A stretch of 64,000 nucleotides of DNA from Candidatus Omnitrophota bacterium (GCA_020341815.1 CP070837.1:892064-956063); one strand, 5' to 3'. Positions 911-23,008 are shown, counted from the stretch's first letter. Notes: generated from the letters alone by a model not told the origin. Made by a program: numbers and translations.

Positions 911-2209
911 ATGTGGGCACGAAAATATACAAAATGCATAGAATGCGGAACAACAGAAATACCTCACTTTAGTAAAGGGCGCTGCAGAAGATGCTGCCAT
1001 AGGATTAGAGATAATCTGAGGATAGATAGATTAGAAATTAATAAAAGAATCGGCAGAGGTCAAAAGAAAAGATACGCATTGAAAAATAACATCAGAAATC
1101 AAATAACCAAAGATATATTAAGTGATTTATATTGTTATAGAAAAATGTCTTTCGGAGACATAGCAAAGCAATACAACTGCTCAAGAGCGTATATATTAAA
1201 GCTATGTAAATTATATAGTATTCCTATCAGAAATAAGTCCGAAGCAAGATATTTAGCACTAAAACAAGACAAGCTTCCTTTTTGTTACCACAAATTGAAT
1301 GAACAATTCTTTAAGACTTGGACTAAAGAAATGGCATATGTCCTTGGTTTACTTTATGCAGATGGCAATATGCACAAAAACAAGTCAAGCTTTTCTTTAA
1401 GCTTGAAAGAAAAAGATTTTTTAGAGCGGATTAGAAATAGCTTAGAAAGCACACATCCCATAAAGAAGAGCAAAGTCCAGGAACTCTATCATTTAACTAT
1501 CGGAAGCGGCAAAATGATTGAAGATTTGCTGAAATTAGGCTTTATCCCGAGAAAAAGCCTAAAAATCAAGTTCCCAGACATGCCAATTGCCTATATTTCC
1601 CACTTTATAAGAGGGTATTTTGATGGTGACGGAAGTATAATAAAAAAGAATGATAGCAATGTCTATAAGGCCTCTATTGTTACCGGGTCGGAAAAATTCA
1701 TTTCCAGCATAAAAATGCATTTGGAAAGACTTGTGGGTGTAAGCGTACAAAGAATCAATAAACACAAAACAGCAAACGCTTATTTCATTCATTACCACAG
1801 AAGGAGCGATATCGAGAAACTCTATAAATATTTTTATGACGAGTATACAATAAGCAATAAATTATACTTATCTAGGAAACTTTTAAAGTTTCAAGAAGCC
1901 ATTAGCAATTATAAGAAATGGGGCCTTAATCAGCTAAGGTCTTCCAGACACAACGCTAAATATAGCGCTAAGGTAAAACTGGAAAAAAATCAAACAAATG
2001 CCACAATCGAAAAGTTAATCGCCTACTGGTGTTCTTACCGCCAACTTGGCAGCAATATATCTGATTTAGCTAGATATGTCAAAGTCTCAAGGGATACGGC
2101 ATATCGTTGGTTAAACAGGAAAGCTCAGCCTAAGGAGCAAAAATTACAGCTGATTCAAGAATGGTTAAGGCAAAGGCCGAATCATCAACAAACACTTATT
2201 TATAAGTAG
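911..2209 (+). CDS. LAGLIDADG-type (double-motif) homing-endonuclease-like protein with an N-terminal C4 zinc ribbon, an internal HTH and a C-terminal AlpA/Xis-like HTH
   Basis: CxxC-x14-CxxC at the N-terminus. Two LAGLIDADG-like motifs (YVLGLLYADGNM and FIRGYFDGDGSI) about 95 aa apart. The C-terminal VSRDTAYRWLNRK...IQEWL resembles the AlpA/excisionase HTH_17 family. Confidence 0.6.
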   Translation: MWARKYTKCIECGTTEIPHFSKGRCRRCCHRIRDNLRIDRLEINKRIGRGQKKRYALKNNIRNQITKDILSDLYCYRKMSFGDIAKQYNCSRAYILKLCKLYSIPIRNKSEARYLALKQDKLPFCYHKLNEQFFKTWTKEMAYVLGLLYADGNMHKNKSSFSLSLKEKDFLERIRNSLESTHPIKKSKVQELYHLTIGSGKMIEDLLKLGFIPRKSLKIKFPDMPIAYISHFIRGYFDGDGSIIKKNDSNVYKASIVTGSEKFISSIKMHLERLVGVSVQRINKHKTANAYFIHYHRRSDIEKLYKYFYDEYTISNKLYLSRKLLKFQEAISNYKKWGLNQLRSSRHNAKYSAKVKLEKNQTNATIEKLIAYWCSYRQLGSNISDLARYVKVSRDTAYRWLNRKAQPKEQKLQLIQEWLRQRPNHQQTLIYK

Positions 2210-2233
2210 AAAGGGGAGGGTCATCGGCTAAAT

Positions 2234-2449
2234 ATGCCTCAAAATAGCTCAGAATTGGCCATATTTGAACGACTAAGGGAACATTTAGGGTTCTACAAAT
2301 ACGCGGATGTAGAACATCAATCGGTGACTGCTTTAGCCAAATATTGCAGGGTTTCAAGGAGAACTATATATAACTGGTTGAACAGCAAGACAAAGCCAAA
2401 ACAGGCTAAATTGAAGTTGATTAAGGAATGGATAGATAGTCGAATATAG
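2234..2449 (+). CDS. AlpA/Xis-like HTH protein, paralog of the C-terminus of the preceding gene
   Basis: VSRRTIYNWLNSKTKPKQAKLKLIKEWI is about 60% identical to the C-terminal 40 aa of the 432 aa protein. Good RBS (AGGGGAGGG). Confidence 0.6.
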   Translation: MPQNSSELAIFERLREHLGFYKYADVEHQSVTALAKYCRVSRRTIYNWLNSKTKPKQAKLKLIKEWIDSRI

Positions 2450-2459
2450 TATAAGGCTA

Positions 2460-2491
2460 ATAGGGCTAAAAATGGCCCTATTTTTTAATTT
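2460..2491 (+). terminator. Rho-independent terminator ending the short plus-strand gene block
   Basis: ATAGGGC-taaaaatg-GCCCTAT stem followed by TTTTTTAATTT. Confidence 0.5.
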
Positions 2492-2649
2492 CCCCCTATT
2501 TCACAGTCCTATCCATAATATATCTTATGTTAACTTCCCAATATCGGCTAAATAGGCATAACCATAGGAGAAATAGGCAGTTAAGTAATATGTAGGATAT
2601 TCTGTGGATAAACAGTTAAACGGGATATCTTGCCCCAAAAGATAAAAAA

Positions 2650-3010
2650 AGGGCCTCATTTAATTGAGTTTACTTGAACTTACTTTTGGAGGGAAACTTA
2701 CTTCCAATTAACCTTGCTTACTGCTAAAGACCCACTTAATCAGGCTTAACCAAAATTACCGCAAAAGTGTAACTTTTCTCAAGTTAACCTGGCTTACTTT
2801 TGCAAGCCAACTTAACTAAATTTCGTTACACTTACTCAAAGGACCCTATTTTACTTAGTGTTACTTTTTAGGGCTGACTTACTTATCCTTACTCAATGAG
2901 CCACGAATTACCTGTATTTACTTTTTTGAGGAAAGTTACCTGAAGTTACTCGGTGGGTTTGTTTTTACCGGAAGTTACTTGATGGGCCTATTGTTACCTA
3001 GAGTTACCTC
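2650..3010. repeat. Degenerate tandem array of about 25 TTAC(T/C)T / GTTAC(C/T) units (iteron-like) in a convergent intergenic region
   Basis: Direct reading shows GAGTTTACTT, GAACTTACTTTT, GAAACTTACTTCC, AAGTTACCTG, AAGTTACTCGG, AAGTTACTTGATG, GTTACCTAGAGTTACCTC and similar units. No ORF of 60 aa or more on either strand. Confidence 0.65.
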
Positions 3011-19554: not shown

Positions 19555-20346
19555 CTATTTTCGCTCTTTTTTAATTATTTTCTCGCTCTTCCTCCCTTCT
19601 AATGCTGCCTCCATCAGGCCTTCCAGGGTTAAATTTTCATTAATCTTATTAATAGAGCGGCAATAAGGCAGCATTAAAGAAGCTCCGCCTCCTGTAGATA
19701 CGACATAAGGGCGCCCTTTTAATCCCTTTTTTAGTTCTTTTAATATCCCCTCTATCATAAAGCTATATCCGTAAACAAGCCCGCTTCTCATGCTGGAAAT
19801 CGTCTGGCGACCTAAAAGCGCCTTGGGGCGGCTTAGCTTTACCTCAGGCAATAAGTCGGCCTTGCCGGTTAAGGCCCTTAAGGAAAGCTCCATTCCGGGA
19901 ACAATCACCCCTCCCAGATAACCTCCTCTTGCCGTTACTACATCAAAGGTAACGGCAGTGCCAAAGTCCACCACAATTACCGGACCCGCATATCTCTTAA
20001 ATGCCGCCGCGGCATTGGCCAGCCTATCCTGACCGACTTCTTTCGGCTTTTTATAAAGATTCTTAATGGGGGCCGGGATATCCTCACCCAAAACCAGAGG
20101 CTTGGTCTTTAGAATAAGAAAAAGGGCCCGTTTAACTATCCTGGTAAGCTTAGGCACCACACTGCAAATGATAACCTCATCTATGGTATCAGCCTTCTGC
20201 TTTGCAAGAAGCTTTCTTAAAAGCTTTGTATAGTACTTAAGATTGGCTGCTTTATTAGTAGCCAGCCTCCAGGTGCGCATAAGCCTCTTTCCTTTAAATA
20301 GGCCCATCTTTATATTGGTGTTGCCGATATCCACTGCCAGAAGCAT
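19555..20346 (-). CDS. coaX: Type III pantothenate kinase
   Basis: MLLAVDIGNTNIKMGLF N-terminus and acetate/sugar-kinase fold motifs. Confidence 0.9.
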   Translation of the reverse strand: MLLAVDIGNTNIKMGLFKGKRLMRTWRLATNKAANLKYYTKLLRKLLAKQKADTIDEVIICSVVPKLTRIVKRALFLILKTKPLVLGEDIPAPIKNLYKKPKEVGQDRLANAAAAFKRYAGPVIVVDFGTAVTFDVVTARGGYLGGVIVPGMELSLRALTGKADLLPEVKLSRPKALLGRQTISSMRSGLVYGYSFMIEGILKELKKGLKGRPYVVSTGGGASLMLPYCRSINKINENLTLEGLMEAALEGRKSEKIIKKERK

Positions 20347-20403
20347 CTGTTTAAGTCCTTTTTAATAGACCTTTTACGAACAGGCGAAGGATTTGCTATG
20401 TGG

Positions 20404-20964
20404 TCACGTTATAATCTTAAGAATTTCATTTATACTAAGACCAAATTCTTTTGCCAAATTTATAAATAAACTTAAGAGTTGAACTACATTTGACACAGAG
20501 CCAAGTGAGCTTTTAAATCTTTGCAAGAAACTTCTTTCTTTACTCCCTTCTCTGTAACTAGGAAGTTTCTCATCAACTTTACTTTGAATATCAAGAAGCA
20601 TTTGAACATAAAAAGATTGGTTTTGCTGCTGACTTTGGCTTATGACTGTATTTGGACCACCACTAAAAGGTGCAGGTTCATTAGCAAAATACTCACCATG
20701 AAGGTTTGTAATTAAACCGCCTAACTTCTGTCGGTATGTAATAAGCGGCAAGGCTTCATTGCCGCTAGGTAAACGTTGAGGGTTAACACAAAAACGGTTA
20801 TAATCTTTTCCCGAAGTCTGGCTAACTAAGCTTACGCAGTTATTATATTGTTCCCATACAGATTTGTCGTATATATAAACATTGGGGTTTTCTGGAATTC
20901 CTGGTGCTTGTGAAAGATATCCTTGCAATTCTGAATATAAAGGTCTTAAGTTTTCTTTTTCCAT
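20404..20964 (-). CDS. Hypothetical protein, AT-rich island gene 2
   Basis: No recognisable family. Markedly lower GC than the flanking genes. Confidence 0.6.
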   Translation of the reverse strand: MEKENLRPLYSELQGYLSQAPGIPENPNVYIYDKSVWEQYNNCVSLVSQTSGKDYNRFCVNPQRLPSGNEALPLITYRQKLGGLITNLHGEYFANEPAPFSGGPNTVISQSQQQNQSFYVQMLLDIQSKVDEKLPSYREGSKERSFLQRFKSSLGSVSNVVQLLSLFINLAKEFGLSINEILKIIT

Positions 20965-21013
20965 GTAATTGTTCTCCTGAACCTAACTAAGGGTTTGCTA
21001 TGCGGACACTATT

Positions 21014-21718
21014 TTACAAATTCTTGAGATATCCAATCAAATTTTGTTGTATAATGGAGCGCCCTTTTAAAAAGCCTTTAAGAATACTATTTAATTGTGA
21101 AAGTCGTATAAATTTTTCTTCGTCGTCAAATTGATGCAAATTTTCTTTCATTATTAATAAATCATATTTTTTATTTGGAAATAAGGCTACTGCAACATAT
21201 GGAGCTCTTGAGTGTAGAAAAAGATTTCGATGTATGTCTAAAATAGCAAACCATTCATACGACTCCCCAGATTCTTCAATCATTTCTTGAATTCTTTTAC
21301 CGACATCTTTTTTTTGTAAGCTTTCACCGGTATGCAAATATATCTGTTGCAGAAACTTCGCCATTAATTCACAGCATGAATTAAATTCAAATAGAAAAGA
21401 ATCGATATCAATCAGTAACTTATATTTAAGTGTGTCATCGACCTTAAATGCATAACCAACTTTAGTCGGTGTTGAAATGTATTTATGATCTATGTTTGCT
21501 ATCTCTTTACATAATTTTCTATATTTTTCATTTATTCTCTTTATAATCCTAGGAAACATATTCGACCTGGTAGAAATAGATAACCCAAGTTGACCAAAAT
21601 CCTGGGGAAATTTTTTAATTTTTCCCCTCTTGAAGGCATCATTGATTGCTGAATAAATTGGTAAAACCCATGGATCACCACCCACTTCCATTATATGCAC
21701 CCACTGATTAATTTTCAT
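21014..21718 (-). CDS. Hypothetical protein, AT-rich island gene 1 (possible HEPN-like Rx4H motif RNLFLH)
   Basis: No recognisable family. AT-rich. An Rx4H motif lies in an alpha-helical-looking C-terminal half. Confidence 0.6.
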   Translation of the reverse strand: MKINQWVHIMEVGGDPWVLPIYSAINDAFKRGKIKKFPQDFGQLGLSISTRSNMFPRIIKRINEKYRKLCKEIANIDHKYISTPTKVGYAFKVDDTLKYKLLIDIDSFLFEFNSCCELMAKFLQQIYLHTGESLQKKDVGKRIQEMIEESGESYEWFAILDIHRNLFLHSRAPYVAVALFPNKKYDLLIMKENLHQFDDEEKFIRLSQLNSILKGFLKGRSIIQQNLIGYLKNL

Positions 21719-21973
21719 TATGCTATTTTTTCCTTCTATGAATTCTTTTCAAATCCTTCTTTTTCAGGCACAATTTTTACAAGTATTGGGGGTTATGGTT
21801 GGCTTGGTATGGTTCAAAGCGGGGTGTGTTTTGGTCGAGCGGGCAAGGTTTCGCTCTGTTTTGGAGCTCTGCGAAGAGCGAGACCAAAACCTCAAGCGAA
21901 GTTTTGCCACGCTGGGGCAAAACAAGCGTCCCCGCGTGAACCATGCCAAGTCAATCATTAACTCTACCTATCT

Positions 21974-23008
21974 TCACCCAGCCCTCCCAATCTCAACCGC
22001 CAGTTTAATCGCCTCTATCATTGAGCCGGGATTGGCCTTGTTCTTTCCTGCTATATTGTAAGCGGTTCCGTGGTCGGGTGAAGTGCGCACAAAAGGAAGC
22101 CCCAGGGTAAGATTTACCCCCTGATGAAAGGCCTGCATCTTCAAAGGAATTAGCCCCTGGTCATGATACATAGCCACCACAGCGTCAAATTTACCCTGCA
22201 GGGCGGAATAAAAAATAGTGTCTGATGGCAAGGGCCCCTCTATAGAAGCTAAAGCTTTTGCCTTTATTACTGCCGGCCGGATAATCTTGATCTCCTCCTG
22301 CCCCAAGGTCCCTTCATCCCCGCTATGGGGATTCAGGCCGCAAACAGCAATACGCGGACGGCGAATTCCAAAGTATTGCTTAAGGTAAGAGGCGCTCAAG
22401 GCTAAGGTCTCATATATCTTCTCTGTGCTTAAAGACCCGGCCACTTCTTTTAAGGGGACGTGCCTGGTTACCAGTACTACTTTAAGAGGCCCTCCTATTA
22501 ACATCATAGCAAACTTTTTGGTTTTTGTGGCCCGGGCAAGATATTCCGTATGTCCCGTAAAGACTTCGTCCACGGGACTACCCCGTGATGCGCAGCATTT
22601 TACGGGGTGCCCTTGGAAGAAAGTTCCTGTCTGGCTGATGGTATGCTTATTCACCGGCGCAGTTACCAGGACATCTATCTTTTTGGCTTTAACCAACCTT
22701 AAAGCCTCATCGATGCAATCCAAGGCCAATCTTCCATAAGCCGGGGTGCCGCGGCCAAAGACTAAACGCGATGTCTCCCCCACATCCGATAAAGCGACAT
22801 CCTTATTTAGCTTTATTCTGCACTTTCTGGCTGTCTGTTCCATTACTGAGGAGTTGCCGATAATCAGGAAGTTCGCTAGTTTCTGGACACTCTTGTCCCT
22901 AAGGGCCTTAAGAATTACTTCCGGCCCGATGCCGGCGGCATCTCCCATGGTAATACCACAGGTCAATTTATCTTTATATAAGCGCTTTGCTTTAATTCTC
23001 CCACCCAT
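21974..23008 (-). CDS. pdxA: 4-hydroxythreonine-4-phosphate dehydrogenase
   Basis: ITMGDAAGIGPEV and HSGDEGTLG motifs. Confidence 0.9.
   Translation of the reverse strand: MGGRIKAKRLYKDKLTCGITMGDAAGIGPEVILKALRDKSVQKLANFLIIGNSSVMEQTARKCRIKLNKDVALSDVGETSRLVFGRGTPAYGRLALDCIDEALRLVKAKKIDVLVTAPVNKHTISQTGTFFQGHPVKCCASRGSPVDEVFTGHTEYLARATKTKKFAMMLIGGPLKVVLVTRHVPLKEVAGSLSTEKIYETLALSASYLKQYFGIRRPRIAVCGLNPHSGDEGTLGQEEIKIIRPAVIKAKALASIEGPLPSDTIFYSALQGKFDAVVAMYHDQGLIPLKMQAFHQGVNLTLGLPFVRTSPDHGTAYNIAGKNKANPGSMIEAIKLAVEIGRAG

Follow-up and report, generated by a model that had tools for sequence, protein, structure and literature searches.

An AT-rich segment between pdxA and coaX

The window analysed here is a 64-kb stretch of the 1.55-Mb contig of a Candidatus Omnitrophota MAG, on whose minus strand the genes follow in the order surA, pdxA (ending at 21974), gene A, gene B, coaX (starting at 20346), groES and groEL, with spacers of 255 nt between pdxA and A, 49 nt between A and B, and 57 nt between B and coaX. 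The first-pass annotation had delimited A and B as two open reading frames of 234 and 186 aa lying in a block of housekeeping genes, and both were recovered at exactly its positions on the minus strand (Table 1); they match the NCBI records JSV30_04860 and JSV30_04855, and their N-termini agree with those of their homologues.

Table 1. Coordinates of the features at the locus (window positions) and of two integrons that carry a gene A homologue (positions in the named locus).
Feature	Coordinates	Strand	Description
Inserted segment	20347-21973	-	Between pdxA stop codon and coaX start codon; lineage-specific
Repeat copy 2	20387-20407	-	GTGACCACATAGCAAATCCTT; at the coaX-proximal insert end; includes the TGA stop of B
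Gene B	20404-20964	-	186 aa; predicted stand-alone all-helical protein, two halves and a conserved Pro/Gln-rich linker
GTTAGGT core	20980-20986	-	Perfect match to the attC/attI core consensus GTTRRRY; followed by the ribosome-binding site AGGAGA
Repeat copy 1	20989-21009	-	GTGTCCGCATAGCAAACCCTT; starts 5 nt past the TAA stop of A
Gene A	21014-21718	-	234 aa; predicted stand-alone HEPN protein: short N-terminal extension, four-helix HEPN core, beta-hairpin insert
Imperfect hairpin, 164 nt	21795-21958	.	Between pdxA stop and gene A; GC-rich, 52%
Complete chromosomal integron, L017	627-10086		IntI and attC array
Complete chromosomal integron, L035	1588-9699		IntI and attC array

Compared with the 50 non-overlapping ORFs of at least 150 aa in the window, which served as the composition reference (mean GC 44.9%, sd 4.3), the GC contents of A and B were only 30.8% and 34.8% (z = -4.1 and -3.0), ranking lowest and third-lowest among the 50, and their GC3 values of 0.26 and 0.24 deviated even more from those of the window's genes (z = -4.6 and -5.0). 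The whole segment has 35% GC versus 44.9% in the window. This bears out the earlier remark that the two genes are much more AT-rich than their neighbours, by 3-5 sd in GC and GC3.

The corresponding region was inspected in five loci (L126-L130) representing three lineages of related Omnitrophota, whose CoaX proteins are 60-70% identical. In all five, pdxA abuts coaX with a gap of -10 to 91 nt within the common order argS-(mfd)-surA-pdxA-coaX-groES-groEL-IMPDH-like-cobO, and neither A nor B is found there. Since pdxA directly adjoins coaX in these relatives, the segment is a lineage-specific insertion, so that the housekeeping block is indeed interrupted by foreign DNA, as had been supposed. 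The ~20 nt adjoining coaX (TTAAACAG and an AGGA ribosome-binding site) look native, and the pre-coaX sequence TTAAACA[C/G]..ATG, with an AGGA-type ribosome-binding site before it, is common to the window and the relatives; therefore, the boundary of the foreign DNA lies some tens of bases upstream of coaX, near the B-proximal repeat copy.

The hairpin between pdxA and A is an inverted repeat with 22-nt outer arms and a predicted RNA fold of -77.5 kcal/mol (z = -7.9). It had no match in Rfam, and no further copies occur in the 64-kb window or in any fetched locus. An attC identity was ruled out, as GTT lies on its 5' arm and AAC on its 3' arm, the inverse of attC, and no attC model matched it. 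Its candidate identities are a native terminator, a MITE-like relic or a portion of the insert.

The protein families of gene A and gene B

Gene A had been thought compatible with a HEPN-type RNase on account of RNLFLH, which occupies its residues 164-169. All 34 members of the A family share R164, and at least 90% of them keep N165 and H169, i.e. the motif takes the RNxxxH form of the HEPN signature Rx4-6H, with its polar residue (N/D/H) right after R, and the long helix preceding it carries E111 (invariant) and E117. A confident AlphaFold2 model (pLDDT 88.7, pTM 0.83) places R164-N165-x3-H169 at the end of helix 3, after the helix at 155-163 and before the loop to the last helix. According to the description of HEPN domains in PMC3710099, the motif closes helix 3 and helix 2 bears a conserved acidic residue, and A agrees with this description on both points. 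The N-terminal extension of A comprises ~35 residues with conserved W6, H8 and GDPW[V/I]LPI, and the beta-hairpin insert (174-190) lies between helix 3 and helix 4.

HEPN_Cthe2314 (PF18730) was the only Pfam family matched by more than two A members (5 of 34); the matches cover residues 128-208, the motif included, the best one reaching 18.1 bits (E 0.003) against a gathering threshold of 27.1 bits that no A member attained, and the window's own A protein had no match to PF18730. Searches of Pfam, NCBIfam, PADLOC and PHROGs with A and B gave no match at a meaningful E-value, PADLOC-DB 2.0 gave none at E <= 10, and both profiles returned noise only from the PDB sequences, in agreement with the earlier statement that the two proteins have no recognisable family; neither was placed in a mundane metabolic family. 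The motif, the fold and the weak PF18730 matches thus make A a predicted divergent, stand-alone HEPN protein: the HEPN part of the original suggestion, resting on fold and motif, holds, and an RNase activity is proposed by analogy. As known for HEPN RNases, A would dimerise and thereby join two R-N-x3-H motifs, and the dimer would cleave RNA without a metal ion, leading to growth arrest upon a phage or stress trigger, with both activity and trigger being putative.

Among known systems, A is like the Cthe_2314-like HEPN family (PF18730; Anantharaman et al. 2013, PMC3710099), for which 'architecture: none detected' is recorded (PMC3710099), in being a stand-alone bacterial HEPN with a conserved Rx4H and no fixed partner, but is unlike it in having the helix 3-helix 4 beta-hairpin insert and the conserved N-terminal W/GDPW(V/I)LPI, and in that its family members match PF18730 below the gathering score. 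At the level of its family, A is also a solo HEPN-type protein found on integron cassettes, like the 'Integron cassette HEPN' family (PDB 3jrt) listed in PMC3710099 and like Esos and Taranis, the single-gene HEPN-like anti-phage cassettes of the Vibrio cholerae superintegron (bioRxiv 10.1101/2024.07.02.601686), for which growth arrest or phage defence has been proposed or shown; a relation between A and 3jrt was not detectable. Unlike the HEPN-MNT type II/VII toxins (PDB 7ae2, 8xdj, 5yep, 1jog; YutE/DUF86 1ylm), A has no MNT nucleotidyltransferase beside it, either in the window or in the fetched relatives, and is ~100 residues longer.

Homologues of A with 35-52% identity were found in Nitrospirae, Planctomycetales, Desulfobacterota-type MAGs, Acidobacteriota, Beta- and Gammaproteobacteria, Ignavibacteriaceae and Paenibacillus. 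The plasmid search yielded one relative, a distant homologue on the megaplasmid p1 of Cupriavidus necator (NZ_CP068436.1 113988-114668; L131 12001-12681) with 30% identity over 97% of the query (E 2e-24). This replicon measures 1.19 Mb, its PLSDB gene table, which is incomplete, lists no feature at the A homologue, and no attC occurs within 12 kb on either side.

Gene B belongs to a widespread family, an exhaustive profile search having collected 499 representative clusters at 50% identity, nearly all of 180-195 aa and a few up to 283 aa. Its model (pLDDT 86.5, pTM 0.52) has a linker, PAPFSGxPxTVIxQxQQQxQS, that is strongly conserved yet disordered. Among the same-length relatives of B that the deep profile search returned there was no informative fusion, and the plasmid search returned no relative; the homologues are distributed in Omnitrophota, TA06, Planctomycetes, CPR groups, Latescibacterota and others. 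The nearest relatives of B lie outside integrons, in neighbourhoods of restriction-modification or defence genes. Three B homologues are immediately preceded by a small gene for an XRE-family HTH protein, located at 4079-4270 in L123 and at 3769-4053 in L125, which are among the closest relatives of B, and at ~2150-2360 in the more distant L073. It is surrounded by restriction-modification, SLFN-like helicase and HNH/SRA genes, a hint that expression may be regulated within defence islands. The surroundings of the family as a whole, i.e. integron cassettes, restriction-modification or defence islands and sometimes the upstream XRE-HTH gene, suggest that B plays an accessory role related to conflict.

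Integron cassettes carrying A and B homologues

Many homologues are flanked by canonical attC sites: an inverse core, typically [A/C/G]CATAAC, coincides with the stop codon or closely follows it, and a GTTRRRY core precedes the next start codon by 10-50 nt. Twenty-four hand-picked sites next to homologues were taken as attC seeds, with their arms aligned in fixed register as fixed-length arm pairs, and displayed the canonical layout (R'' 7 nt, spacer 5, L'' 8 with one bulged base, L' 7, spacer 5, R' 7). Pairing was found in 76.8% of the cells versus 58.7% in shuffles, and the covariation score was 0.437 versus 0.149 in shuffles, being much lower as well when the 3' partners were slid by one to three columns. 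Two covariance models were used at E <= 1, R1 built from the seeds and R2 rebuilt from the matches of R1. With R2, the A loci yielded 50 attC sites and the B loci 30, every one of the 80 on the same strand as the gene, and 61 kb of control loci yielded zero. RNAalifold had found no structure on a MAFFT alignment of the full-length seeds because the 3' arms were out of register, which the fixed-length arm pairs solved. An RNA-folding attC finder was dropped for giving as many matches in shuffled as in real sequence, and two stricter scoring schemes, specific but missing most of the sites visible by eye, gave way to the covariance models.

By R2, attC directly flanks A in 9 of 30 distinct loci (L001, L003, L005, L017, L023, L024, L034, L035 and L036) and B in 11 of 71 (L055, L069, L072, L083, L085, L089, L091, L097, L100, L105 and L109), so that, by the model, the attC-flanked share is just 30% for A and 15% for B, with many copies outside integrons. 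Two A homologues, those of L017 (a Desulfatiglandales MAG) and L035 (a Smithellaceae MAG), are each a single cassette within an array that counts 10 or more attC sites, and an integron integrase is encoded just upstream on the opposite strand (TIGR02249, 443 and 411 bits at a cut-off of 265), each forming a complete chromosomal integron (Table 1). The array of L003 (Betaproteobacteria) also includes BrnT, TIR and DUF433 cassettes. At the family level, homologues of both A and B thus occur as single genes in attC-bounded arrays with the attC orientation, and both gene families are recurrent integron cassettes that move between phyla singly. No relatives of A or B were present in 2.9 million viral contigs and B had no viral structural match, by which a phage origin was ruled out.

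The first-pass annotation had further proposed that A and B form an undescribed paired defence or toxin-immunity system, and the distribution of the families speaks against it. The two genes co-occur in 0 of the 125 loci fetched via homologues (34 via A, 91 via B), many of them short contigs. Clustering of 165 flanking ORFs yielded only two recurrent neighbours, each in three loci and both upstream of B, namely the XRE-HTH gene (L073, L123, L125) and a ~270-aa protein without Pfam match (L053, L068, L101). By hhalign, the probability that A and B are related is 0.3%. Because no co-occurrence, conserved partner or profile similarity was found, the A-B adjacency in the window is unique so far. 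The attC-bounded cassettes of ~0.8 kb hold A alone and the B cassettes hold B alone, so each gene is complete by itself; the homologues of both are of constant length, spread over many phyla, all unnamed and without Pfam domains. The PADLOC check also returned no defence model for either protein.

Several loci showed further variation around the homologues. L005 and L006 (JGI 3300057048 and 3300057049) have identical cassette arrays by the A homologue save one block, comprising a HigB-like toxin, HTH_3 and a cupin, and this difference suggests a recent cassette gain or loss. In a Planctomycetales MAG (L016, 5830-6780) the short repeat GGTGYCCCTTTGGGRAACGTCCC takes the place of attC around the homologue, in L124 (450-1590) the flanking repeat CAAAGTGTCC(C/G)NGGG(A/G)CAG does so, and AAAAGGTGTCRGGTACCATT occurs in L007 (3060-9040), in a 9-kb run of small same-strand ORFs that lies between argS and ileS. 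Judged from these sequences, cassette-like boundaries other than attC may exist.

The 21-nt repeats and the origin of the insertion

A 21-nt repeat had been described as lying 3' of each gene and flanking the island. The repeat is real, its two copies being identical in 18 of 21 bases and the degenerate pattern having exactly two occurrences in 64 kb (0.01 expected by chance), and its position at the 3' end of each gene was confirmed, with copy 2 starting at the third base of B's final sense codon. The flanking did not stand, as no copy lies at the pdxA-proximal end and the repeats do not bracket the island; thus, of the two readings offered earlier, a target duplication of the island is not supported, while a cassette boundary is reasonable given that both families are recurrent integron cassettes. 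The repeat sits exactly where R'' sits in real cassettes, and its heptamer (A/G)CATAGC is one base off the commonest R'' of the seeds, with AGC instead of AAC, a resemblance that is confined to the heptamer. None of the 131 fetched loci (867 kb) contains the 21-mer, even with up to 4 mismatches allowed, so it is a local feature and not one of the families. In the A-B spacer, the GTTAGGT core ends 15 nt upstream of the ATG of B, its G being 22 nt from the A of ATG, and A and B homologues in genuine cassettes carry this core at 10-50 nt ahead of their own start codons; we estimate the chance occurrence of a GTTRRRY core in a 49-nt spacer at ~4%.

No hairpin potential was detected at the repeats or gene junctions (folding versus shuffles, z = +0.4 to +0.8). 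The attC model did not match repeat copy 2, nor copy 1, where the best local alignment (5.2 bits) paired AGCAAAC with GTTAGGT across almost nothing, and it gave nothing useful when the 21-mers were treated as truncated 5' half-sites, with the searched stretch ending just past them. With all filters off, neither R1 nor R2 found attC near the island (20300-22000), the best matches in the 64 kb (13-16 bits, E 0.4-0.8) lying away from it, and tblastn with the IntI of L017 and L035 (E <= 1e-3) found no IntI-like tyrosine recombinase in the window. At most, the 21-nt repeat represents a cassette boundary that has decayed. A and B are like integron cassettes in being small, promoter-less-looking, same-strand single-gene units, in having attC-bounded homologues, two of them in complete integrons with IntI, and in carrying here GTTRRRY before B and a repeat after each stop. 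By IntegronFinder-type criteria they are unlike an integron, a CALIN or a single attC site, as the window copies have no detectable attC and no IntI within 64 kb, the latter being needed for a complete integron and not for a CALIN.

On this evidence, the segment is probably a horizontally acquired insertion of two independent single-gene modules from widespread, often cassette-borne families rather than one system. A and B would most likely have arrived jointly, as adjacent cassettes of an AT-rich donor array, and would now be stranded in a non-integron site, without integrase or functional attC, in which case the 21-nt repeats and the GTTAGGT before B would be the decayed, collapsed or truncated remains of attC; we read the island as a fossil. 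It is unlikely, though conceivable, that a non-integron mobile element brought the island, with the 21-nt repeats as its sites or duplications and the 164-nt hairpin as a MITE-like or transposon end. The missing attC and IntI, the long GC-rich hairpin at the pdxA-proximal end, GA(G/C)TTAA at both insert ends, the repeats other than attC flanking other A or B loci (e.g. L016, L124 and L007) and the uniqueness of the 21-mer to the island would all suit such an element, but no transposase, integrase or tRNA gene is present in or near the island, no tRNA gene as an integration target occurs in the 64-kb window, the hairpin is single-copy in the window and all loci, the repeats follow each gene, and no clear terminal inverted repeat or target duplication surrounds the whole segment.

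That A and B constitute one two-gene toxin-immunity or defence system, with A as a HEPN toxin and B as its antitoxin, sensor or partner, is highly improbable and has been largely refuted by the distribution of the families: the two genes are adjacent on the same strand, 49 nt apart, with a foreign composition and a 3' repeat in common, and HEPN toxins usually come with a neutralising partner (PMC3710099), but none of the 125 loci has both, the attC-bounded cassettes carry one or the other alone, and the proteins have no profile similarity, common neighbours or PADLOC match. The idea that they are native, fast-evolving or low-expression genes whose composition is a local quirk has next to no probability left and is refuted by synteny and composition; the ORFs are intact with plausible ribosome-binding sites and all family-invariant residues kept, but both genes are missing at the same site in the five relatives, GC3 lies 4.6-5.0 sd below that of the window's genes, and the nearest homologues are in other phyla. 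It is also doubtful, though worth stating, that each gene is an uncharacterised single-gene conflict module like those now emerging from integron cassettes, A a new HEPN family of self-contained abortive-infection RNases and B a new, widespread ~185-aa defence or anti-defence family, and that the 21-nt repeat and the repeats other than attC around relatives (L016, L124, L007) mark a second, undescribed type of cassette boundary in uncultivated phyla.

With two independent cassette-type modules as the preferred reading, what appeared to be a novel two-gene defence island becomes more ordinary, consisting of stranded, independently mobile, integron-type single-gene modules, and nothing in the current understanding is overturned. 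These would be cassette genes fossilised in a housekeeping locus of an uncultivated Omnitrophota with no detectable integron within 64 kb. The analysis defines two orphan families without a Pfam model, a predicted divergent stand-alone HEPN and a helical family of ~185 aa, both widespread in sediment and groundwater bacteria, often as integron cassettes. In the Vibrio cholerae superintegron, ~18% of the tested unknown-function cassettes (at least 10% of all its cassettes) are reported to protect against phages (bioRxiv 10.1101/2024.07.02.601686), which makes both families sensible choices for functional screening. The decayed-cassette reading would be backed by attC sites beginning (A/G)CATAGCAAAYCC elsewhere in the genome, and the 15-mer CATAGCAAAYCCTT offers a handle for tracing the donor array in metagenomes.

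The window has a second AT-rich patch at 911-3000. Its 911-2209 part encodes a 432-aa LAGLIDADG_3 and HTH protein (GC 0.345, Pfam E 5e-14), the C-terminal HTH of which is repeated in a 71-aa ORF at 2234-2449, and 2640-3000 is dense in short TTACTT/GTTAC repeats and has a weak attC-like palindrome at 2767-2831 (11 bits, E 4).
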